From contig DAOTUH010000126.1 in NCBI GenBank assembly GCA_034437255.1, positions 19,198-83,197 of the forward strand: 64,000 nt of DNA, read 5' to 3'. This stretch comes from Anaerolineae bacterium (lineage in GTDB: Bacteria > Chloroflexota > Anaerolineae > B4-G1 > SLSP01). Below the pieces are notes generated by a model. That model worked only from the letters and a program-made list of their open reading frames with translations, was not told the DNA's origin and searched no databases. The translations under genes and the position numbers were made by a program. Positions 1 through 11,244 of the stretch are shown piece after piece. Position 1 is the first letter of the stretch; each line of letters opens with the position of its first letter.

Positions 1-837
1 GATGACGAAAAAAAGTAAAATGATGTAGAGCGTCAGGCCCGTGCCGCCGGTGAAGCGGAAATAGAGCACAGAGAGGCCGATCAGGCCCAGGAAGAAGATA
101 AGCATACGGGCCGTAGGATTGTCCCGGAGCCACTTGGCGGTCAACTCGAAGATGCTCATCTGGATCACACGCTCCATCTCCCGTTTGGGGAAGGAGACAC
201 CGACGCGATTCGGACCGGTAGCGGAGCCGTTTTCCCATCGCCAATAGACGAGCGTGCGATCCCCATCGATAGCGACCTGGGTGAAAGGCTCATCCTGGTA
301 GCGAACCTCGTCGGGCTGCACGCCTTCGAGCATGGCGACGATAATCTGCACGTCCGTCGAGCCTATGACCAGGCTGGAGTCGAACCACGTCGGCGTAATC
401 TGGAGCGACGCGTACTGCCGGTCTGTCACGTCCTGATAGACGAGATCAGGCATGGTGAACTCGACGTGCAGCGTGCCGGTCTCGCCAGCAGGAATAGCAT
501 GCTCGTCTAGATGAATCTCCACGCCGGTGTCAATATACGTCGATGGGCGGATGTCCGTCAGCGGGTTGCCATCGACGTTCGCGGACATATTGCCAATGTC
601 GTAGTCATCGTGCGGCGTGCCGATATCGACGATGTCGATGGGACTGGCGTAGCCCGCGTTTTCAAAAGTGATGTCATACTCGATCCGCACCGAGGCGTCC
701 GGCTGCACCTCGACGAACATGCGCAGCTCCCGCACGGAGAAGGAATAGTTCTGCGCCGCTGCCGGTCGTCCCAAGGTGAGCAAAGCCAGACAGACGATGA
801 CCAACATGCCGATTCTGTATGTGCGGTGATTTCTCAT
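1..837 (-). CDS. Exported/membrane protein, DUF2207-like architecture (5' end in window, gene runs off the window edge)
   Basis: ATG at 837 sits 5 nt downstream of a GGGAGGTG Shine-Dalgarno. Signal peptide MRNHRTYRIGMLVIVCLALLTLGRPAAA. No in-register minus-strand stop down to position 1. Hydrophobic helices at the C-terminal end. Absent from the ORF track because no stop lies inside the window. The overlapping plus ORF 511..921 is judged spurious. Confidence 0.7.
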   Translation of the reverse strand, partial: MRNHRTYRIGMLVIVCLALLTLGRPAAAQNYSFSVRELRMFVEVQPDASVRIEYDITFENAGYASPIDIVDIGTPHDDYDIGNMSANVDGNPLTDIRPSTYIDTGVEIHLDEHAIPAGETGTLHVEFTMPDLVYQDVTDRQYASLQITPTWFDSSLVIGSTDVQIIVAMLEGVQPDEVRYQDEPFTQVAIDGDRTLVYWRWENGSATGPNRVGVSFPKREMERVIQMSIFELTAKWLRDNPTARMLIFFLGLIGLSVLYFRFTGGTGLTLYIILLFFVI

Positions 838-994
838 TCAGCACCTCCCATATCCTACACACTAAAGCATGGCTCTGCTAAAAATTGGATTTTTAGTATT
901 TCGGTCTGCGCTATTCGCTGACCTTTGATACGTAAACTCACAGACCCTAGAATCAAGTTTCCGAAAAATCCGATTTTTTTGTCTCGATAAGTAA

Positions 995-2350
995 TTAGCC
1001 AGGATTTACAGCCCAAGTTCGAGGATCGCTGGGACAGCCGGCCACGCAAATCAGCAGATCGGGACAGACGTCACAGCGGCTCGGCGCTTCGACCCGTTCC
1101 CGATAGACGCGGAAGGCCTCGTGCTGCCAGATGGTGTCCCAGTCGTCCTGCAGGAGATTACCCGCGCTGCGATAGCGTCCGCGCGGCGGCACCACGGTCC
1201 CGTCCGGCTCGATGCGCGCAGCCACGTCACCTGCACAGCGCGGCCCCAGGCGAACCTGCGCCTTGAGCGGGGTGTCGGGATCGCGCGCCACGGGCGGCGC
1301 CCAGATAAAACGTGCCTGCGCCCCGTGGGCCACCTCCTCGACGCGATTAGCGACCTGCGGCATAGCCTCAGCAACGAAAGCCTCGTCCTCGCTCAAAGCC
1401 GGGTCCGCCGTCGCGTAGGCGACGAAGATGATGTTGTCCGCACCTATCTCCAGGAGCGAGATCACCGTCGGCTCCAGAGCGTCCAGCGTCGGCTCGATCA
1501 GCGGTACCTCGGCCACGGCGCAGAGCCCGCTGGTCTCCAGCCAGGCGAAGAGTTCGGTGGCCGCCACATGGTCGCCCTCACCGAGCAGCGCATCGTGCAG
1601 CGCGCCGTCGGTCGCCGCGTAGGGCAGCGTGACGTGATCGACGCCCGCCATGGCGAGGTCCGGGACGAACTCGGTGATATCCATCGCGCGCCCGCGCACG
1701 CCCGCGATAAGGCCCAGATCCTCGGCCCGCTCCACGGCACGTACGAGGTGCGCGCCTTCCGGCGCGACGGGCGCCAGGAACGTGACGTGCGGAATCCCGA
1801 CCTCCCACAGCCGGTCGAGCAGCGGCACGAGGTGCTCGGGCGATGCCAGCGGCACGGCGGCCTCCAGCGGCGCGATCAACTCCGCCGCCTCCGCCGAGAA
1901 AGGCGCCGACTCCAGGTTGAAGACGGGATACGTGTCCCCCGGTTGTAGGATCTGTGCGATCAGTCCCTGGACGCGCTCAATGTCGGCGCGCATGGTGGCC
2001 TCTGTTGCCCCCTTGAAGTTCTGTTTCAGCCGCCGCAGGATGGTAGCCTCGTCGTCGCCGTCCAGAAGACCCTTGACGATGAGCGTGCCCGTCAGCGTGA
2101 GGCGGGCCGCGGCCGTCGCATTTGCGATGAGCATGCCGCTGCCGTCGCGCTCCACGCGCAGGTGAAAGCGCGTGATGGTGCCGTCGTCGCTCTCCTGCAT
2201 AACGTGGGTGAGTCCCGGCTCCAGGGGCGGGGACGGTTCGGGACGTTGGACGTCAAACAACCGTTTTAGCCAATTCGATGGTGACATCATCTCCTCCTCT
2301 GAGAACAAGTCAAAGGTGATTCTACTGAAAAAAGGTTGTGCCTCACGCAA
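995..2350 (-). CDS. Radical-SAM/SPASM-family paralog with N-terminal PqqD-like RRE domain; CxxxCxxC motif absent, predicted catalytically degenerate
   Basis: N-terminal ITRFHLRVERDGSGMLIANATAAARL resembles a PqqD-like RiPP recognition element. The C-terminal CDVCPDLLICVAGCP is SPASM-like. No CxxxCxxC is present anywhere. Overall co-linear with the 3375-4772 gene. Confidence 0.6.
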   Translation of the reverse strand: MREAQPFFSRITFDLFSEEEMMSPSNWLKRLFDVQRPEPSPPLEPGLTHVMQESDDGTITRFHLRVERDGSGMLIANATAAARLTLTGTLIVKGLLDGDDEATILRRLKQNFKGATEATMRADIERVQGLIAQILQPGDTYPVFNLESAPFSAEAAELIAPLEAAVPLASPEHLVPLLDRLWEVGIPHVTFLAPVAPEGAHLVRAVERAEDLGLIAGVRGRAMDITEFVPDLAMAGVDHVTLPYAATDGALHDALLGEGDHVAATELFAWLETSGLCAVAEVPLIEPTLDALEPTVISLLEIGADNIIFVAYATADPALSEDEAFVAEAMPQVANRVEEVAHGAQARFIWAPPVARDPDTPLKAQVRLGPRCAGDVAARIEPDGTVVPPRGRYRSAGNLLQDDWDTIWQHEAFRVYRERVEAPSRCDVCPDLLICVAGCPSDPRTWAVNPG

Positions 2351-2440
2351 AGACGCCGCCGACCAAAGGTCGGACAGTCGCCAAGATTTTAAATTTGTCC
2401 TTACTTTTCTGAATATTAAAGCCAGCCTAGATCAATAAAA

Positions 2441-2513
2441 TCTACCATCTTATGAATTTCCTTTGCGTTCTTGGCGCCTTTGCGTGAGGTTGATGGTTAT
2501 TTCAGTGAAGTCA
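2441..2513 (+). repeat. Conserved ~72-nt element R, copy 1, containing mini-ORF MNFLCVLGAFA (2452-2487)
   Basis: About 93% identical to 58141-58213. Outer inverted repeat ACCATC...GATGGT. Internal direct repeat CCTTTGCGT x2. Confidence 0.5.
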
Positions 2514-2556
2514 AAGGGCAAAGGTAAAAACCGGATTATTGAGAAGCCTATGAATC

Positions 2557-3351
2557 TCACGTGACGACGCGCAGCCAGCCGCCGTCGACGTAGTACGTCG
2601 AGCCGACGCAGTAACTGGCGCGCGGCGAGCAGAGAAAGACGAAGAAGTCGGCCAACTCCTCCGGCGTGGCGAAGCGCCCGATGGGTGTCTTTTCCTCGGC
2701 GATCTGCCGGAGGTACGTCTCCCAGCCCATCTCCCGACCGGCGGTCAGCGCTTTCGCCGTCTTGATCCAGTCGCCGGTCTGGATCAGGCCGGGGTTGATA
2801 CAGTTGACGCGGATGTTGTCGCCGATAAGCTCCTCGGCCAGGCACTTGGAGAACATGGCGAGTGCCGCTTTGGTGACGTTGTAGATGGGCTCGTAGCCCA
2901 GCGGCTGGCGGGCGCAGATGGAGGCGTTGTTCAGGATCACGCCGCCTCCGCGCGCTTGCATCAGGGGCGCCAGGCCCCGGGAGAGCCGCACCGCCGCCAT
3001 CACGTGCAGGTCCCAGTAATACTGCCACATCTCGTCCGGCGCCTCCAGGATCGTCTCGTTGCTGCCGGTCCCCGCGTTGTTGATGAGGATGTCGACGCCG
3101 CCAAAGGCGCGCTCGACCTCTTCGATCAACCGCTCGATGTCGCCGGCGACGGTCACGTCCGTGCGCACACCCAGCACCTCGACGTCGTGCGCGTCTCGAA
3201 TCTCCGCTGTTGCTTCGTTGAGCCGCGCAGCGTCCCGCGCGCAGAGCACCACGTGGACGCCTTCCGCCGCCAATCCCTTGGCAACCGCCAGTCCAATGCC
3301 CGCGCTCCCGCCCGTGATGACCGCGACGTTGCCTTCCAATCCAAGATCCAT
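2557..3351 (-). CDS. SDR family NAD(P)-dependent oxidoreductase
   Basis: TGGSAGIGLA Rossmann motif. YxxxK-type SDR core inferred from overall SDR-like sequence. Start moved from the track's 3429 to the ATG at 3351 (MDLGLEGNVAVITGG), which has a GAGG upstream and avoids overlap with the preceding gene. Confidence 0.85.
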   Translation of the reverse strand: MDLGLEGNVAVITGGSAGIGLAVAKGLAAEGVHVVLCARDAARLNEATAEIRDAHDVEVLGVRTDVTVAGDIERLIEEVERAFGGVDILINNAGTGSNETILEAPDEMWQYYWDLHVMAAVRLSRGLAPLMQARGGGVILNNASICARQPLGYEPIYNVTKAALAMFSKCLAEELIGDNIRVNCINPGLIQTGDWIKTAKALTAGREMGWETYLRQIAEEKTPIGRFATPEELADFFVFLCSPRASYCVGSTYYVDGGWLRVVT

Positions 3352-3374
3352 GTTTTCCTCTCTTTCTCTACCTT

Positions 3375-4772
3375 CTATCGACAGCCGTATGCGCGTGCCT
3401 CGCGCTCCAACCGGCAGCCGCCGCCGCACATCTCAAGATCAGGGCAATCCCAGCAGGTCTCCGGAAGCCCCGCCGCCTGCGGATTCTCCTCACGCTCCCG
3501 GAAACTACGGAAGAGATCGCTGTTCCAGATGGCGTCCCAGGGATCGCGCAGCAGGTTGCCCGCCGTCACGTAGTACGATTGGCAGGGCAACACGTCGCCA
3601 TTAGGCTCGACGCAGATGGAGTACTCAGCGGCGTTGCAGCGTTTGGGCGCCAGGCCCAGCGCCACCGGCGAGAGCTCGCAGTAGTCGGTCACGGTGTACC
3701 AGAGAAAGCGCATGCCCAGCTCGGCAGCGCGTTCCCGCACGGCCACCAGCACCGACGCCATCTCCTCCGCCGGGATCGCATCGGGCGTCGCCAGGCCGCG
3801 TCCCGCGTAGATTATGCCATTCATCGCGAAGGTCGTCAGGCCGAGGTTGTGCACGAAATCGACGGTCTCCAGAGCGTGATTGACGTTGCGGCGCGTCAGC
3901 GTGGTGTTGGTGATGGTGTGGAAATCGCACACCAGTGCGTTCTCAATGCCCCGCACGGTCTGCTTGAAAGCGTCAGCGTTGACCATAGCGTTGTGCACGT
4001 CGGCGCGGCAGGACTCCAGCGTGATCTGCACGTGGTTGAGGCCCGCGTCGCCCAGCGCGTCCACCAGCGGTCGATGGGAGAGCGCGCGCCCGTTGGTGTT
4101 CATCCCCACGATCTGGCCCAGGTCATCGGCGTGCCGGACGATGGCGGGTAGGTCTGGGTGCAGCGTCGGTTCGCCACCGGTGAGGATGATGTGCGGCACC
4201 CCCACGTCGGCCAGCGTCTCCAGCACGCGGAACCAGTCTTCGGTGGGCAGCGGGGGCATCTCACGTCGGCCCGGCTCGTTGTAGCAATGCGCGCAGGCGT
4301 TGTTGCACCGGTAGGTCAGCGCCAGGTCGGCTTTGAAGGGCGCGCTGACGGGCGTGCTAAAGAGCGGCGCGAATTCCACCAGCGACTGGACCGCGCAGGT
4401 CGGGCAGCCGGATTCGACGGTACGGAACCGGTCGATGAGTTCGTAGACCTGGGCCAGCGCCGCGTCGAGCGCCGCGCGCGCCACACCCCGGTACCGTTGT
4501 GCGAGCGCCGCGCGCGCCCGAGCCTGCGGCACGTCATCCAACGCCAGTTTCGCCATCTCCGTCGCCGTCGCGTTGAGATGCACGGCGTCGGTCACGTCGG
4601 CGAAGAGCACGCCCGATCCGTCCTCTGCAACGCGCAGATGCAAGCGCCGCTTGCCCTCCCTCACCGGCACCGGATACGTGTACAAGCCCGGTTCCGGCGG
4701 TGCAGGCGGCGCTAACAGCGTCCACGCTGCCTGAACCTCTTCTTGAACCTGCGCCCACCAGCTGCCCATCAA
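3375..4772 (-). CDS. Radical SAM/SPASM-domain enzyme (PqqE/MftC-like) with fused N-terminal PqqD-like RRE
   Basis: LTYRCNNACAHCYN carries the CxxxCxxC AdoMet-cluster motif. GGEPTLHPDL. C-terminal Cys-rich SPASM region CWDCPDLEMCGGGC. N-terminal LHLRVAEDGSGVLFADVTDAVHLNATATEMAKLAL resembles a PqqD/RRE fold. Confidence 0.85.
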   Translation of the reverse strand: MMGSWWAQVQEEVQAAWTLLAPPAPPEPGLYTYPVPVREGKRRLHLRVAEDGSGVLFADVTDAVHLNATATEMAKLALDDVPQARARAALAQRYRGVARAALDAALAQVYELIDRFRTVESGCPTCAVQSLVEFAPLFSTPVSAPFKADLALTYRCNNACAHCYNEPGRREMPPLPTEDWFRVLETLADVGVPHIILTGGEPTLHPDLPAIVRHADDLGQIVGMNTNGRALSHRPLVDALGDAGLNHVQITLESCRADVHNAMVNADAFKQTVRGIENALVCDFHTITNTTLTRRNVNHALETVDFVHNLGLTTFAMNGIIYAGRGLATPDAIPAEEMASVLVAVRERAAELGMRFLWYTVTDYCELSPVALGLAPKRCNAAEYSICVEPNGDVLPCQSYYVTAGNLLRDPWDAIWNSDLFRSFREREENPQAAGLPETCWDCPDLEMCGGGCRLEREARAYGCR

Positions 4773-4954
4773 TTACCTCTCATATCGGCCCGCGCGTAAC
4801 CCGCGCCGCGTCTACGAAGCAGGCACCTACACAACCAGACGCTCACCGGACGCGCCGCGCCACCGCTTCCAGCCGCGTTAGCGGCGTCGGGTTGATGCGC
4901 TGGTTAGGTGCCTCCGCTCTGCATACCAACCTCTTTACCCAAAAATCCTTGTTT

Positions 4955-6229
4955 TCAATCGGCTATTGCCATACCTCGTTCAACTACCTCAATCGCTTGT
5001 CCAACACCGTCTTCAGCACGGATCCGCTCACCCAATGCATCAGCATGTACCCGAATGTTTTTGTCTGTGACTGCCGTGGCAATCGCCGCTCCCAACTTCC
5101 TCACTGTCATTCTCTTGCGCGGTATTGCCTTCGGCCCAACACCAAGCCTCATTACCTGCCGCGCCCAGAATGGCTGATCACCAAAGTGGGGCACCAACAC
5201 CGAAGGCACACCTGCTCGCAACCCCGCAGCCGTCGTTCCCGCTCCACCATGATGCACCACCGCGGCTACGCGCGGGAATAGCCAATTGTGAGGCACCGAT
5301 TCAAGTTTGAACACACCATCCGGCAAATCAACACTCTTCAGCCCGCCCCAACCTGACGCAACCAGCCCTCGTTGCCCTGACCGCTTCAGCGCTTTCAGGA
5401 CGATCTCGGTCGTTGATTCTGGATCACGGCTTGACATACTTCCAAAGCCAACATATACCGGAGGTGGGCCAGCCTCAAGGAATCTCACTAAATCGGTGGG
5501 GGGGAGCCAATCTGACGAGTGGTCAAGGAACCAGTATCCTGTGACATGAATGTGCTCATCCCAATCCGGTGGCTTAGGGACGACAGATGGACTGTAGCTG
5601 TAAAGCATGGGTACCGGTCGTCCATCCAGCTGGCCATAGGGCCACTTGAAGAGCGAAATTGGCGGCAATCCCAACTGCTTTTGCCGCCAGTGGTTGATGA
5701 AGCGCCCCGTGAGCTGTTGTGCAAATTGCTCAACCATGATGTGTGTCGAGAGATTGTAACTGCCGCCTAAGGGGAGGAAAGGAAACGCCAGGTTCGGAAA
5801 GCTGCGGGTACGATTGAAGAAAGGAAACGGTAAGGCCCAAAAACAAGGCAATCTTTGCTTCTCAGCAATATGATAAGCTCCTATTCCAAGCGTTGAAAAG
5901 ATGATGGCTTCCGCCGTCTGAGAAGCCTGCCAGACTCTACCCGCGAGTTGCTCCAGCGTCGGCTGCATCATACGGATGATTTGCCACATTCCCTGAATGA
6001 CATTGCGGCCCGATTCTAGCACATCCCACGCAGCTTCTGTCCCCAACAACTCTCGTGCGTTCATGCCAAGAGAAAAGAAATCCAATCCTTGACTTCTGAC
6101 AAACCTCTCGAAATCATCAGTCGTGACAAAAGTCACTTCATATCGCCTGGTCTTCTGCAGCCCTACGCCCAGCGCCACGAGTGGTTGCACGTCACCACGC
6201 GAGCCAAGTGCCAAAATCATACTGCGCAT
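4955..6229 (-). CDS. GT1-family glycosyltransferase (MGT/UDP-glycosyltransferase-like)
   Basis: N-terminal ILALGSRGDVQP. C-terminal HHGGAGTTAAGLRAGVPSVLVPHFGDQPFWA is a UDP-sugar binding signature. AAGGAAA SD before the ATG at 6229. Confidence 0.85.
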   Translation of the reverse strand: MRSMILALGSRGDVQPLVALGVGLQKTRRYEVTFVTTDDFERFVRSQGLDFFSLGMNARELLGTEAAWDVLESGRNVIQGMWQIIRMMQPTLEQLAGRVWQASQTAEAIIFSTLGIGAYHIAEKQRLPCFWALPFPFFNRTRSFPNLAFPFLPLGGSYNLSTHIMVEQFAQQLTGRFINHWRQKQLGLPPISLFKWPYGQLDGRPVPMLYSYSPSVVPKPPDWDEHIHVTGYWFLDHSSDWLPPTDLVRFLEAGPPPVYVGFGSMSSRDPESTTEIVLKALKRSGQRGLVASGWGGLKSVDLPDGVFKLESVPHNWLFPRVAAVVHHGGAGTTAAGLRAGVPSVLVPHFGDQPFWARQVMRLGVGPKAIPRKRMTVRKLGAAIATAVTDKNIRVHADALGERIRAEDGVGQAIEVVERGMAIAD

Positions 6230-6299
6230 CGGCGTTTCCTTGGATATTCTACGTCAACCATTCATAGATTTAACAGCAAAGGGCACCTAACCAGCACGT

Positions 6300-6450
6300 G
6301 TGTGGCTCGGTGGGACACCGGCCACAGCGCATCGTGTCAGCATTCGCACTGTGTGGCTCGGTGGGACACCGGCCACAGCGTATCGTGTTAGCATTCGCAC
6401 TGTGTGGCTCGGTGGGACACCGGCCAAAGCGTATCGTGTCAACATCCAGT
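6300..6450. repeat. Tandem direct repeat, 3 x 51 bp
   Basis: GTGTGGCTCGGTGGGACACCGGCCACAGCG(C/T)ATCGTGT(C/T)AGCATTCGCACT repeated three times with 1-2 mismatches. Contains the hairpin core CGGTGGGACACCG. Confidence 0.9.
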
Positions 6451-6452
6451 AC

Positions 6453-6794
6453 CTACCACTTGGGCGCTTCTTCGATTTGATAGCTGGCGCCGCAGTAGGG
6501 GCACTCGACAAAAATCGCGCCGGCGCGCACCGAGAGATTATCTTTATCCAGAGTTCCGCCGCAGTTTCGGCACGTCATCTCTTCCAGCTTCACGTCGCCG
6601 CTAAGATCGATCTTCTGCACGATGGTCTTCTCCTCGTGCTTGGGCCGCACGCGGGTGAGATAAATCATCACGCCGGCCCCGGCCATCAGGATCACGCCGA
6701 CGATCACGCGGATAAACTGACCTTGCGCGCCGACGACGAACATCACGCCAAAGAACGCCAACACCGCTGCGATGATATAGGTCACAATCTCCAT
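6453..6794 (-). CDS. Small membrane protein with C-terminal zinc-ribbon
   Basis: TM helix IVTYIIAAVLAFFGVMFVVGA and a second hydrophobic segment. CRNCGG...CPYCG zinc ribbon. ACGGAGGTT SD before the ATG at 6794. The track's longer start at 6836 is judged less likely. Confidence 0.65.
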   Translation of the reverse strand: MEIVTYIIAAVLAFFGVMFVVGAQGQFIRVIVGVILMAGAGVMIYLTRVRPKHEEKTIVQKIDLSGDVKLEEMTCRNCGGTLDKDNLSVRAGAIFVECPYCGASYQIEEAPKW

Positions 6795-6910
6795 GGAACC
6801 TCCGTTGTGAATGGATGGTTTGCGCAATACTCTCATTATAGTCTGATTTGGACAGCAGCATAGCGGCGGGACATGAAAGGTCTTCTCAGGAAACGGTGAC
6901 GATCAAGTTG

Positions 6911-6919
6911 TGCTATACT
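6911..6919 (+). promoter_or_regulatory. Possible extended -10 promoter element (TGcTATACT) upstream of 6970 gene
   Basis: TGnTATACT lies 50 nt upstream of the GTG start. No convincing -35. Confidence 0.25.
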
Positions 6920-6969
6920 GGTAGAAACGATGAGCAGTCCATGTCCATCGACCTAAGGAGGCAACTTCT

Positions 6970-8169
6970 GTGAGACGCCCGATACGATTTCTATGGCTGT
7001 TTTTGATGTTCACGACGTTGGCTTGTGTCTTGCTTGCGACGGAGGAGCCCACGACCACACCGACCGAGGAGGAAGCCAACACGGCGGGAGCGCCTACGTC
7101 CACCGACACCTCCGATCCGGCAATGACACAAACGCCAACTGCAACGACTGAAGGCGACGAAACGAGGAACGGCGACACACCCACCTCAACACCGGCAGGC
7201 TGCACGTTAGGCGCGAGCTTCATCGAGGACGTGACCATTCCCGATGACACTGCGCTGGAACCCGGCGCGGACTTCCGCAAGACGTGGCGGCTGCGCAACT
7301 CCGGAAGTTGCAATTGGGAAGCGGGCACGCGGTTGGTTTTCGTGAGCGGGGAGACGCTGAACGGGCCAGACAGCGTGATCGTCCCGGCGGCTGCGGCCGG
7401 ATCGACGGCCGAGGTCAGCGTGGAGCTCACCGCGCCCACGACGCCGGGCACCTATCGCAGCGAGTGGCGGCTGCAAGCGCCGGACGGCACCCGGTTCGGC
7501 ACCACCATCTACGTGCAGATCATCGTGCCGGAGCCACCGACGGTCACGCCCACGCCGACCGATACGCCTGCCCCGATCACTGCAACGCCGACGCCCACGT
7601 CAACGCCAGACGAGACAGGCTGCACCACACCCTACGATCCCGCTTTCACCGCGACGATGGACTACGCCGCCGACCTGGGCTTTGACATTGGATGTGCCGA
7701 GAGCTTTGGATACGATATGTCCGGTGCTGTGCAGATTTTCTGGGCCAACGTCGACGAGCCTAATCCCCATTTGCACTACCGGACGCTGATGATCTGGAAC
7801 AAGCCCTACAAGCAGGGCGAGATTTACTACGTCACCGTCTCCGAGACAACACCCGTGCAGCCCTTCCACGCCAGCTACGACACCTGGGAAGAGGAAATGC
7901 CCGAAGTCCCGCCGGACTGCGCCGACATGCCGGTGCCCGACGGTTACCTCATCCCTATTCGAGGTTTCGGCAAGCTCTGGTGTGAGCAGGAGCTCTGGAC
8001 AACTATCGGCTGGCCCAGTGAGTCGGAGGTTGCCATCACGTTTCGCGTCCAGCAGACCGAACACGGCCGGTTGATGCGCTTTGGCGATCCGCTGATCAAC
8101 ACCTATGTTGTGGCGTGGGATTATGATACGAACGAGGCACTGGTGCACATGAATCCGATTGAGCCGTAG
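6970..8169 (+). CDS. Secreted Thr/Pro-rich protein with central Ig-like (NBR1/CARDB-like) domain
   Basis: AAGGAGG SD then a GTG start. Hydrophobic signal with LACVL lipobox-like motif. Long T/P/E-rich linkers. CNWEAG...TRLVFVSG motif. Confidence 0.7.
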   Translation: MRRPIRFLWLFLMFTTLACVLLATEEPTTTPTEEEANTAGAPTSTDTSDPAMTQTPTATTEGDETRNGDTPTSTPAGCTLGASFIEDVTIPDDTALEPGADFRKTWRLRNSGSCNWEAGTRLVFVSGETLNGPDSVIVPAAAAGSTAEVSVELTAPTTPGTYRSEWRLQAPDGTRFGTTIYVQIIVPEPPTVTPTPTDTPAPITATPTPTSTPDETGCTTPYDPAFTATMDYAADLGFDIGCAESFGYDMSGAVQIFWANVDEPNPHLHYRTLMIWNKPYKQGEIYYVTVSETTPVQPFHASYDTWEEEMPEVPPDCADMPVPDGYLIPIRGFGKLWCEQELWTTIGWPSESEVAITFRVQQTEHGRLMRFGDPLINTYVVAWDYDTNEALVHMNPIEP

Positions 8170-8261: not shown

Positions 8262-11156
8262 CTAGCGTGGTCGATGTCCCGTCAATCTCTCTCGCAGTTC
8301 GATAAACGCTTCGAGATCGCCTTCGGCGAGGAGGCGGGCCTGGTCGAGCCACGTGGACGTGTAACGGACGCGAATGCCGCTCTCGCGGAGTATAGCTTGA
8401 ATCTCCTCCGGCGTCAGGGCCGCCAGCTGCTCGAAGAGCGCGATGCCGGCCGCGTTGAGCAGCTTCTCGCTCTTTGGCCCCAGCCCCCAGATGCGCTGGA
8501 GGTCGTCGGGCTCCGTCAGCTTGCGCTCTTGCACCGGCTCCGGCTTGGCTGCCGGCACAGCAAAGGAGATCGCCGCGGTCGGCGGCGTGGGCATGCGCCA
8601 GCGGTAATCGTGCTGCATGGCCTGCTTGAAATCCTCCTGGATGCCGGACTTATCGTGGATCTTCCACTGATCGCCCGTCCAGCGGTAAAGCAGCAGCCCA
8701 CGGATCTGTTGTGCATACGGCCGCATGTTCCAACCATCGATCTCCTCGTAGATTTTGCGCACCCAGCCGATGTTAGCGTTGATCCACCCCTGCGACGCCG
8801 GATTGTCGCACGTGGGCGCGTTGTCCGGGCGACAGACGTGATTCGTCTCGGTGATGTAGACGGGCAGATCCTTCCACTTGTAGGGAATGCGCTCCATAAA
8901 CTGTCGATAGGTCTGGAAATCGAAGTAGTGATCGTTCAACAACGGATCGCCAAAGGTTTCCAGATGCGTGATGGCTTCCAGCGACGGTCCGTGCGTGTAG
9001 GCGTGCAGGATGAAACCATCCAGCGAATCGATGTTGTCCATCATCTTCTGGAAGTAATCTAAGGGCCGCCAGCGCACATTGCCCAGCAGGGGCATGGACG
9101 AAGAGTTGTAAGGGTCGACGGCGCCAGGACAGACCAAGGCGTTGGGCAGCACGTCCTTGATGGCAGCGTAGATCTTGTTGAAGGCCTCCGCGTAAAGCTC
9201 TGCCGTGATGTGTTGCTTAGGATGATGCAGCCCGCCCGGATGCTCGCTGGGATTGTTTTGCTCGTTGCCAATCTGGATCGTCCAGGTGTAGTCATCCGGC
9301 GAGAGATCGTCCCGCTTGAGGTAAATCTCAACCCAGCGCGCGCACGCCTGCGCGAACTCATCGTAGTGGCGGGATTCGGGCAGCGTGCCGCCGGGATGGT
9401 AGCCATGATTGAGACGTACGATGACACCGTAGTCCTTCTCCATCCAATCCTGGACGCGGTTGCGGATATCCTGATTCAGACCGACGTCCTGGGGACGCCG
9501 CCGTACTACCTCTGTGAAGAAGACCCAGCCCTTCTTCCCCCCGGCGTTGAAGAGATTGCGGATCGGGTCCCGCGTGTAGTGGTCGTCGCTAAGCTGGGCA
9601 GCATGCATGCCGAAGATGTGGGGCGAGAGCCCGCGATCTAGCCAGCCGTCGCGCGCCTGTACCCGCTGATCTTTCTGCTCGGGACGACGCACATACCAGG
9701 CCGCCACATGTCCCTCTCTCCGCGAGGGCGTCCGAACCTTGATCCATTTCTCTTGCTCGCCGATTTTGTTCCCCGTGACTGTAGGATCTTCCAGAGAGCG
9801 CAACACGGCACCATGCGGCACCCACCAGACCTGGACATGATCCGTTCCCGGCCCGCTGCGCACCCGCAGCCCGTACTCGGGGCTTTCCACGACAACGAAT
9901 CGAGCGGGCTCGCCGGACGGCGTCGGTTTTGGCTCAACCTCGGTCTCGAGCTTGAGATACCAGGCCGCCGTGTAGCCGCTCTCATCTTCCGCCGTCTGAA
10001 CGTGTAGCCACTCGTCGTGCTCGCCGATTTTGCGCCGCACCTGGTCGGCCGGTTCTAGCGCTTTAATGATCGCACCATCGGGCATCTGGGCGACGATGTC
10101 GTGCTCCGTGCCCGGCCCGCTGCGGAGCTTGAGCGGCATCTCTGGGCTTTCTACCACTAACAACAGCGTAGGCGTCGGCTTCTCCTTCTCCGGCAGCCGC
10201 AGATACCACGCCGCCGTGTAGCCTTGTTTCCCGTCCGGTGTCTTGACCTTGAGCCATTCCCCGTACTCGCCAATCTTACGGCGCACGTCGATGTCCGGCT
10301 CCAACGCCTTGAGCACCGTCCCGTCGGGCATCTCGGCGACAATCTCATGTTCCGTGTCCGGCCCGCTGCGCAACTTGAGGGGGGTCTCGGGGCTCTGGAC
10401 GACGACGGAGAGCGTCGGCTCCGGCTGTTCCTCCTCCGGCAGTTTCAGATACCAGGCAGCCACGTACCCGTTCTGACCGTTGTGCAGCCGCACCCACAGC
10501 CACTGACCGTGCTGCCCGACCTTCTTGAGCGTGACATCCACCTTTTCCAACGAACCCAGGACAGTCTCATGATCCACGCGCCCAACTTGCTCGCTGCCCA
10601 CGTAAGGCCTGGCCCGCACGTTCAGGAACCCAACCTCCGGGCTGTGCACTTGCACCTTCATGGTGGGCTTAGCGGGTGGTTCCGGCTCCACGCCACCCTC
10701 CGAAAACGGCAACAGATAGGGGCGAGGATTCACGATATCGTAGGGAAAATAGGTCTCGTTGCTTCCCGTCGCGCCATCTTTCTTAAGTGTCAGGTGAAGA
10801 TGCGCACCAAAGGAGTTCCCACTATTCCCGCCCAACCCGATCAGCTGCCCGGCCCGCACGGCCTGGCCTTCGATGACGACGACGGAGGAAAGATGCGCGT
10901 AGACGCTGGTGAAGCCATTGCCGTGCTGAACGCGAACCTGATTGCCGTAGGGTCTCTTGTTGGGATTGGAGTTACCATCAAGACTAACGCGACTCACGAA
11001 GCCATCGGCGACGGCATAGACCTCACTTCCTTCCGGCGCCTTGAAATCCAGCCCCTCGTGTCCAGGCAACCCAAACTTCTGGTAGAACTCCGGTCGGACA
11101 CCGAATTCCTGGGTGATCCTGTTAAACTCTGTCGGCCAACGCATACGAAAACTCAT
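8262..11156 (-). CDS. Multidomain cell-wall hydrolase: M23 peptidase + 4 SH3b-like repeats + clan GH-A glycoside hydrolase + C-terminal helix-hairpin-helix
   Basis: HEGLDF...HLHLT is an M23 signature. Four near-identical ~95-aa repeats end in AAWYLKLP. IGNEQN and YITETN resemble GH-A acid/base and nucleophile motifs. IWGLGPKSEKLLNAAGIALFEQLAALTPEEI is HhH-like. GGAGGG SD before the ATG at 11156. No signal peptide. Confidence 0.8.
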   Translation of the reverse strand: MSFRMRWPTEFNRITQEFGVRPEFYQKFGLPGHEGLDFKAPEGSEVYAVADGFVSRVSLDGNSNPNKRPYGNQVRVQHGNGFTSVYAHLSSVVVIEGQAVRAGQLIGLGGNSGNSFGAHLHLTLKKDGATGSNETYFPYDIVNPRPYLLPFSEGGVEPEPPAKPTMKVQVHSPEVGFLNVRARPYVGSEQVGRVDHETVLGSLEKVDVTLKKVGQHGQWLWVRLHNGQNGYVAAWYLKLPEEEQPEPTLSVVVQSPETPLKLRSGPDTEHEIVAEMPDGTVLKALEPDIDVRRKIGEYGEWLKVKTPDGKQGYTAAWYLRLPEKEKPTPTLLLVVESPEMPLKLRSGPGTEHDIVAQMPDGAIIKALEPADQVRRKIGEHDEWLHVQTAEDESGYTAAWYLKLETEVEPKPTPSGEPARFVVVESPEYGLRVRSGPGTDHVQVWWVPHGAVLRSLEDPTVTGNKIGEQEKWIKVRTPSRREGHVAAWYVRRPEQKDQRVQARDGWLDRGLSPHIFGMHAAQLSDDHYTRDPIRNLFNAGGKKGWVFFTEVVRRRPQDVGLNQDIRNRVQDWMEKDYGVIVRLNHGYHPGGTLPESRHYDEFAQACARWVEIYLKRDDLSPDDYTWTIQIGNEQNNPSEHPGGLHHPKQHITAELYAEAFNKIYAAIKDVLPNALVCPGAVDPYNSSSMPLLGNVRWRPLDYFQKMMDNIDSLDGFILHAYTHGPSLEAITHLETFGDPLLNDHYFDFQTYRQFMERIPYKWKDLPVYITETNHVCRPDNAPTCDNPASQGWINANIGWVRKIYEEIDGWNMRPYAQQIRGLLLYRWTGDQWKIHDKSGIQEDFKQAMQHDYRWRMPTPPTAAISFAVPAAKPEPVQERKLTEPDDLQRIWGLGPKSEKLLNAAGIALFEQLAALTPEEIQAILRESGIRVRYTSTWLDQARLLAEGDLEAFIELRERLTGHRPR

Positions 11157-11244
11157 AATGAAACCCTCCTTGCCTCGTGGATTTAACGTCCCTTTTGGCA
11201 TCTTCCGGGATACTTGGAGCATCCCGGAAGATCAGTGAAAACCC

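Follow-up and report, generated by a model that had tools for sequence, protein, structure and literature searches.

The window analysed here is a stretch of 64,000 nucleotides from an Anaerolineae bacterium (contig DAOTUH010000126.1). Near its left edge it encodes a degenerate, full-length paralog of a radical S-adenosylmethionine (SAM or AdoMet; radical SAM is abbreviated rSAM) enzyme with a SPASM domain. The catalytic motif is absent throughout the family of this pseudo-rSAM protein, and substitution rates indicate that selection on its gene equals in strength that on the active enzyme. The gene belongs to a conserved set that also encodes an active rSAM-SPASM paralog, a transmembrane (TM) protein with a zinc ribbon and a larger membrane protein ending in a tail of cysteines and alanines (Cys-Ala tail). 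The reading that we favour, with modest confidence, is that the pseudo-rSAM protein is a subunit without catalytic activity that handles the substrate and acts together with the active paralog on this tail.

Reading frame and paralogy of the pseudo-rSAM gene

The open frame at 995..2350 on the reverse strand comprises 451 aa when read from a TTG, and the original prediction described a protein of this length. The frame exists, but the TTG start at 2350 overextends it by about 20 codons. As judged from the sequence, the genuine start is almost certainly the ATG at 2290 or 2287, immediately 3' of GAGGAGGAG, because this Shine-Dalgarno (SD) sequence is placed directly upstream of ATGATG at 2290/2287 and because homologues in the database have lengths of 429-435 aa. 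The real product thus has 430/431 aa, and an identical 430-aa product was already present in the protein collection. BLASTP aligned residues 61-439 of the 451-aa frame with residues 43-453 of the 465-aa rSAM-SPASM protein encoded at 3375..4772, with 29% identity over 416 columns and an E-value of 2e-33. The pseudo-rSAM protein is therefore an end-to-end paralog of the active enzyme, as had been predicted. Pfam gave no match of the pseudo-rSAM protein to Radical_SAM (PF04055) at E <= 0.1.

Loss of the catalytic motifs and remnant of the SPASM domain

The active paralog shows CNNACAHC at 4284..4307 and CWDCPDLEMCGGGC at 3414..3455 and has 16 cysteines. The CxxxCxxC motif was found neither in the pseudo-rSAM protein nor in any of the six frames of 995..2350, so that a frameshift cannot bring it back. 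A sequencing or frameshift error and a different domain boundary had been named as the two circumstances under which the predicted loss of the motif would be only apparent. No frame restores the Cys motif, and the motif is gone through an internal deletion of about 20 residues, with the barrel retained.

The extent of the loss was determined in an alignment that combined 20 active paralogs with 18 pseudo-rSAM proteins from the clade of the window (P1) and seven from a second clade (P2). In P1, the deletion of about 20 residues is located at the cluster-binding loop of CxxxCxxC (PLA|SPE, 1832..1852). The GGE motif for SAM is also lost in P1, with LAPVAPEG in place of FTGGEPT; the window reads APVAPEG at 1754..1774. 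P1 retains 40 of the 110 columns that are at least 95% conserved among the active enzymes. Most of these columns belong to the RRE-like domain, are structural Gly, Pro or Trp positions, or represent the four cysteines of Cx2Cx5Cx3C.

The SPASM domain, considered retained in the original prediction, was preserved in part: GPRC and Cx2Cx5Cx3C were kept, but three ligand cysteines were lost. The pseudo-rSAM protein has six cysteines, five of them conserved in the family and located in these two motifs. C406, C409, C415 and C419 are invariant, and C352 is present in at least 90% of the family members. These five are what remains of about nine cysteines in the SPASM region of the active paralog. 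The Gx4C cysteine (LPC in the active enzyme) is replaced by PPR (PPRG, 1178..1189), the cysteine matching SIC of the active enzyme is replaced (ARI) and the distal C-terminal cysteine is also gone. The full seven-cysteine SPASM pattern Cx9-15Gx4C ... Cx2Cx5Cx3C ... C is accordingly incomplete. Profiles disagreed on the remnant, with 24.3 bits for Pfam PF13186 (cutoff 21.5) and 20.5 bits for NCBIfam TIGR04085 (cutoff 27). By analogy with anSME and PqqE, auxiliary cluster II would presumably be left with three ligands and cluster I with two. Because three ligand cysteines of the full motif are missing, probably no more than one auxiliary cluster is present, and its fourth site would be open or have a non-Cys ligand.

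Conservation and selection

Among the best 120 database homologues (56-100% identity), all 120 were without CxxxCxxC and Cx2Cx5Cx3C was kept. At E <= 1e-30, a profile search of 1.84 billion cluster representatives (50% clustering) yielded 142 proteins. The first true active enzyme scored below about 54 full-length representatives. An N-terminal CxxxCxxC was present in none of these representatives, and the C-terminal Cys motif was kept in 44 and missing in about 10. Across 49 sequences of the pseudo-rSAM family, 68 columns were invariant.

Loci of the gene set were compared in 34 cases from the genome collection and in five from metagenome contigs. One of the latter, the independent contig L035, has DNA 99% identical to the window and the same gene order. 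The pseudo-rSAM genes of the window and L035 differ by two synonymous and four non-synonymous substitutions, which are too few to interpret. Ratios of non-synonymous to synonymous substitution rates (dN/dS) were therefore taken from more distant pairs. For eight pairs of moderately diverged orthologues, dN/dS was 0.08-0.17 for the pseudo-rSAM gene and 0.04-0.20 for the active gene. These values indicate strong purifying selection on the pseudo-rSAM gene and argue for a functional pseudo-enzyme; decay and sequencing artefact are excluded because the loss of the motif is family-wide and dN/dS is 0.08-0.17. The original prediction of a catalytically degenerate, conserved pseudo-enzyme is thereby confirmed, and its question whether homologues elsewhere also lack the motif is answered by the 120 best homologues and the roughly 54 representatives.

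Predicted fold

An AlphaFold2 (AF2) model of the pseudo-rSAM protein had a mean predicted local distance difference test score (pLDDT) of 86.7 and a predicted template modelling score (pTM) of 0.82. Confidence was low only at residues 125-138, immediately before the expected position of the cluster loop. The model consists of strands at residues 26-64, helices at residues 66-115 and then a six-stranded beta/alpha core, which represents the partial (beta/alpha)6 TIM barrel characteristic of the radical SAM superfamily. Structural matches of the model were SkfB, SuiB and PqqE, and the Foldseek alignment to the RRE-bearing SuiB covered 464 columns. A search of PDB sequences with the pseudo-rSAM family profile gave nothing at E <= 0.01, and only the comparison of folds succeeded. 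Based on the strands, helices and beta/alpha core of the model, the predicted fold is that of an RRE-rSAM-SPASM maturase scaffold, composed of an RRE, a partial TIM barrel and a SPASM/twitch part, without a catalytic site. The RRE-like domain holds the invariant motif RFHLRV, in which H43, L44 and R45 are invariant. The peptide-binding strand reads A(A/I)RL...G in the pseudo-rSAM proteins, compared with HLNxTA in the active enzymes.

The Cys-Ala-tailed membrane protein

The window holds the beginning of the gene for the Cys-Ala-tailed membrane protein. The complete gene on L035 (11451-13346) codes for 631 aa and ends in SSCACACAGCACACACAGGGR directly before the stop codon. The tail has 19 residues with seven cysteines. 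In 32 of 34 loci, the last residues before the stop codon are CACACAGCACACACAGGGR or, in the second clade, CACACACAGCACACAGGGR; the two remaining loci end at a contig edge before the tail. Copies in L007 and L010 have Ser-Ser in place of the first Cys-Ala. The third positions of the tail codons vary freely and the amino acids are invariant. The constraint on the tail therefore acts at the protein level.

Proteins of this family have 560-690 aa and more than 1100 homologues annotated as 'hypothetical'. Neither the tail protein nor the zinc-ribbon protein matched a curated Pfam or NCBIfam family, even at E <= 10. The AF2 model of a tail-protein homologue (pLDDT 73.9) begins with an N-terminal TM helix, followed by a confident beta-sandwich at residues 42-225, a long membrane helix, a winged-helix-like/helical domain at residues 302-457 and a disordered stretch rich in Gly and Ser. 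This stretch bears a conserved amphipathic segment, FGDVxxSFAGWAExTMGG, and then the tail. The beta-sandwich has similarity to ribophorin I/Ost1 and to the N-domain of M1 aminopeptidases. In the model, the tail is placed beyond the membrane helix that comes after the extracytoplasmic beta-sandwich. The hydrophobic segments suggest an odd number of membrane passes, so the tail would be cytoplasmic and within reach of a radical SAM enzyme. The tail protein is the probable substrate of the system. The original prediction overlooked both this protein and the wider gene system. One database protein of 948 aa, P0292, consists of residues 1-340 of a pseudo-rSAM protein, without the Cys-rich end, joined to a complete tail protein.

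Organisation of the gene set

The conserved genes are co-oriented in the order TM/zinc-ribbon protein, active rSAM-SPASM enzyme, variable inserts, pseudo-rSAM protein and one or two paralogous tail membrane proteins (Table 1). A gene for a methyltransferase of about 245 aa comes after the tail genes in most loci of the window's clade (clade 1), and in three loci a CvpA-like gene was also found after them. An active paralog is located within about 5 kb upstream of the pseudo-rSAM gene, in the same orientation, in 20 of 25 informative clade-1 loci. The tail gene comes after the pseudo-rSAM gene in every clade-1 locus that reaches that far, usually directly (gaps of 3-160 bp where measured).

Table 1. 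Coordinates of the gene cluster and of domains of the pseudo-rSAM protein in the window
Feature	Position	Strand	Description
Cys-Ala-tailed membrane protein, first 279 codons	1..837	-	ATG at 837, SD GGGAGGTG; runs off the left window edge
Pseudo-rSAM/SPASM gene	995..2290	-	430/431 aa from ATG 2287/2290
SPASM remnant	1031..1246	-	GPRC 1235..1246; Cx2Cx5Cx3C (CDVCPDLLICVAGC) 1034..1075
Degenerate partial TIM-barrel core	1301..1864	-	Residues ~143-330
RRE-like (PqqD-like) N-terminal domain	1946..2215	-	Residues ~26-115; four beta strands then three helices (DSSP of AF2 model)
AT-rich 265-bp gap	2291..2556	-	Upstream of pseudo-rSAM gene; promoter-like TTCAGA-16-TAAAAT, 2413..2386
Short-chain dehydrogenase/reductase (SDR)-family oxidoreductase	2557..3351	-	264 aa, Pfam adh_short_C2 4e-54; between active and pseudo-rSAM genes
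Active RRE-rSAM-SPASM paralog	3375..4769	-	464/465 aa; Pfam Radical_SAM 1.3e-25, SPASM 8.9e-12
Glycosyltransferase family 1 (GT1; MGT/Rgt-like) glycosyltransferase	4955..6229	-	424 aa; Pfam and NCBIfam matches
TM/zinc-ribbon protein	6453..6794	-	113 aa, two TM helices, C-terminal zinc ribbon, ends ...YQIEEAPKW

No conserved small open reading frame for a precursor peptide was found, and compact loci leave too little space for one between their genes (e.g. 57 bp in L003). The arrangement typical for peptides that are made by ribosomes and modified after translation (RiPPs), a small precursor gene beside the maturase, is thus absent, and a large membrane protein provides, with its C-terminal tail, the candidate substrate.

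The gene for the TM/zinc-ribbon protein is the first of the conserved set, and an identical 113-aa product was present in the database. Orthologues showed 73-77% identity in most clade-1 loci and 44-58% in more distant loci of both clades. Its C-terminus, ...YQ(I/M/L)xE(A/E)PKW, is invariant in both clades. One source labels the 113-aa protein as HypA/HybF-like, a label that is backed only by weak zinc-ribbon matches.

A second clade with a different pseudo-paralog

A second, deeper clade (L023-L034) has the zinc-ribbon protein, the tail protein and the active enzyme. Seven of its loci (L023, L027, L028, L030, L031, L032 and L034) add a different pseudo-paralog. It kept the loop length and FTGGEPTLR, has neither the Cys triad nor the SPASM cysteines and contains one to four cysteines in total. 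Because the four components recur in this clade, with another type of pseudo-paralog, the pairing of an active enzyme with a dead paralog is a persistent feature, whatever the origin of the pseudo forms. The system tolerates two distinct ways of inactivating the partner. A neighbour-joining tree united both pseudo clades in 98 of 100 bootstraps. Long-branch attraction is a possible cause of this joint grouping, because the clade-2 pseudo-paralogs are closer in identity to the clade-2 active enzymes (39%) than to the clade-1 pseudo-rSAM proteins (25.5%).

Lineage-specific inserts and neighbouring genes

Several genes in and around the cluster are not part of the conserved set. The SDR gene was found in its position only in the window and in L035 and is lineage-specific. 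Other loci have a Met_synt_B12-like gene, a kinase gene or nothing at this position. A protein of 228-304 aa with weak similarity to PF02965, the AdoMet-binding activation domain of methionine synthase, is encoded between the active and the pseudo-rSAM genes, just upstream of the latter, in L003 (9042-9956) and L036-L039. Three loci also carry a gene for a Ser/Thr protein kinase between the two paralogs. The glycosyltransferase gene sits between the TM/zinc-ribbon and the active rSAM genes; it is present in L035 and absent from the other loci. A DegT-type aminotransferase just past the window edge (L035:13490-14725) is likewise inserted in or next to the cluster. According to their family assignments, SDR, GT1 and DegT together are gene types used for making and transferring an amino sugar, and they are not conserved in the other loci.

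A tandem repeat with a unit of 51 bp (6294..6445; 3.0 copies, 94% matches) is located between the zinc-ribbon and the glycosyltransferase genes. Rfam gave no match in positions 1..8000, the tandem repeat included. Two further genes adjoin the cluster and are not conserved with it. One codes for a Thr/Pro-rich secreted protein of 399 aa (6970..8169, forward strand), the other for a protein of 986 aa that combines an M23 peptidase domain with repeats of an SH3-like unit (8262..11222, reverse strand). The Pfam labels of both proteins were obtained from the identical genes of L035.

Proposed role and alternative explanations

A role as scaffold or chaperone for the active partner, as had been suggested, is plausible. 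In the proposed mechanism, the RRE-like domain of the pseudo-rSAM protein would bind the conserved segment upstream of the tail (FGDVxxSFAGWAExTMGG...), and one auxiliary Fe-S cluster may sit in the SPASM remnant, with three cysteines and a non-Cys or open site to hold it. The pseudo-rSAM protein would hold the cytoplasmic Cys-Ala tail and present it to the active paralog, which would perform radical chemistry on the tail cysteines and could form, for example, thioether cross-links. A more far-reaching version, which we regard as possible and put forward only tentatively, assigns both paralogs to a joint machine in Anaerolineae and a few other phyla. The active and the dead paralog would together turn the invariant cytoplasmic tail CACACAGCACACACAGGGR of the ribophorin-like membrane protein into a novel structure, cross-linked or similar to a cofactor, such as Cys-to-Ala thioethers arranged as a ladder or a metal/sulfur site built into the protein. 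The membrane zinc-ribbon protein would serve as the anchor, and the dead paralog would be an obligatory half, the one that holds the substrate, of a heteromeric radical SAM enzyme.

Several observations weigh against the assignment as a subunit that handles the substrate for the active paralog. The tightest linkage of the pseudo-rSAM gene is to the downstream tail gene rather than to the gene of the active enzyme. In five loci (L001, L005, L011, L012 and L020), no active paralog was found in the available 2.4-10 kb upstream. These loci have the pseudo-rSAM gene, the tail gene and usually the methyltransferase gene, with unrelated genes such as MoaA/MoaC upstream, and dN/dS of the pseudo-rSAM gene was still 0.10-0.11. 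With 5 of 25 loci lacking an adjacent active gene, the pseudo-rSAM protein may act alone, or its partner may be encoded elsewhere. The AT-rich gap lies between the two halves of the cluster; its promoter-like site is a match to the consensus pattern only. The pseudo-rSAM and tail genes may form a transcription unit of their own. The RRE assignment falls below the sequence thresholds, with 16.4 bits for PqqD (cutoff 23.4) and 21.4 bits for lasso_PqqD (cutoff 70). The TM/zinc-ribbon protein also has an invariant C-terminus and is hence an alternative candidate for the true substrate. P0292, which as a fusion of the two proteins would speak for the assignment, is a single sequence and may be natural or an artefact of assembly or gene calling.

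The main rival explanation is that the pseudo-rSAM protein handles the tail alone, as a redox chaperone or as a dedicated protein for the handling of Fe-S or metal; the metallothionein-like Cys-Ala tail would be loaded, protected or sensed by it. CxCxC patterns are typical for metal-binding tails. Only a few bases to 160 bp separate the pseudo-rSAM gene from the tail gene that follows it, this pair is retained in the five loci in which no active gene is adjacent, with the pseudo-rSAM gene still under the selection described above, the window has a possible separate promoter before the pseudo-rSAM gene, and the family kept Cx2Cx5Cx3C and GPRC. However, a co-oriented active paralog is nearby in 20 of 25 loci, the clade-2 pseudo-paralogs hold the same place beside the active enzyme without metal-binding cysteines, and the Cys motif is missing from about 10 of the 54 representatives. 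We consider an independent function of this kind rather unlikely. A regulatory or inhibitory paralog, which competes with the active enzyme for the recognition segment of the substrate and thereby limits or times the modification, appears improbable. The overall fold and the RRE-like domain are common to both proteins and the peptide-binding strand is unlike that of the active enzymes, but the conserved co-orientation and the close spacing to the substrate gene fit better to a stoichiometric helper, and the literature searches gave no precedent.

It is very improbable that the pseudo-rSAM protein is still a radical enzyme, with an AdoMet-cleaving cluster on non-canonical ligands such as the cysteines of the SPASM region. 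Non-canonical sites of radical SAM clusters exist in other families, e.g. in Dph2, and five conserved cysteines persist here. On the other side, the cluster loop is deleted, GGE is replaced and only 40 of 110 columns conserved in the active enzymes are left. The remaining cysteines belong to the SPASM region, which in known structures is distant from the top of the barrel, and ten representatives as well as the entire clade-2 pseudo group are without these cysteines. The missing motif alone would also agree with a decaying pseudogene or with a sequencing or frameshift artefact of a formerly active gene. This explanation was rejected and has practically no probability left: the open reading frame is intact and has a good SD sequence, no frame contains the motif, a 99% identical copy is present in the independent assembly of L035, hundreds of homologues share the architecture and dN/dS is about 0.1. 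A non-catalytic subunit that handles the tail for the active paralog remains the reading that we prefer.

Significance and comparison with known systems

Most studies of radical SAM maturases treat them as single enzymes, in some cases accompanied by a small RRE chaperone. In the system described here, a full-length dead copy of an rSAM enzyme is kept under selection as strong as on the active enzyme, and the dead paralog occurs in two degenerate forms, one with a cysteine remnant and one essentially stripped of it, in that the SPASM cysteines are gone. At least about 140 clusters at 50% identity, from several phyla, make up the pseudo-rSAM family. Should the two paralogs function as a heteromer, they would offer a clear case for asking what a non-catalytic subunit contributes to substrate capture, electron relay or the order of modification. 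The seven-cysteine tail on more than 1000 hypothetical membrane proteins is a directly testable target in Anaerolineae, whose cell biology is largely unexplored.

The rarity of such proteins among SPASM enzymes, as stated in the original prediction, needs to be qualified. NCBIfam already curates this kind, with TIGR04347 ('pseudo-SAM/SPASM protein') and TIGR04304 ('GeoRSP system SPASM domain protein'), which by their names represent the same concept of site-less partners of active rSAM/SPASM enzymes. Papers on their mechanism were not found, and literature searches for non-catalytic rSAM/SPASM partners, for the two family names and for the tail motif gave nothing relevant. The GG-Bacteroidales system also includes a 'pseudo-rSAM protein'. 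The window protein had no match to TIGR04347 (cutoff 525 bits) at E <= 0.1, and its relatives reached 17.8-71.9 bits. For TIGR04304 (cutoff 300 bits), the window protein scored 14 bits and the protein of L022 scored 17.1 bits. Neither pseudo group reached the cutoff of any curated family, and the taxa, partners and candidate substrate differ from those of the TIGR04347 and TIGR04304 families. Dead rSAM-like partners are thus a known kind, since NCBIfam names these two families, and the family of the window protein and its gene system appear to be undescribed.

The closest known proteins are the RRE-rSAM-SPASM/twitch peptide maturases SuiB (5V1Q/5V1S), SkfB (6EFN), PqqE (6C8V) and anSME (4K36). 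Unlike these, the pseudo-rSAM protein has no CxxxCxxC, no GGE and no match to Pfam Radical_SAM, and therefore it cannot be classified as a radical SAM enzyme. Its proposed role corresponds to that of PqqD and MftB, stand-alone RRE chaperones that hand the peptide over to PqqE and MftC, respectively. For PqqD and PqqE, the delivery of the substrate to an rSAM-SPASM enzyme by a non-catalytic RRE protein is established. In contrast to PqqD and MftB, the helper described here is a full-length degenerate enzyme copy that has about 430 aa and still bears a cysteine remnant, the active enzyme possesses an RRE-like domain of its own, and the candidate substrate is not a small peptide but the C-terminal tail of a membrane protein of 570-690 aa.

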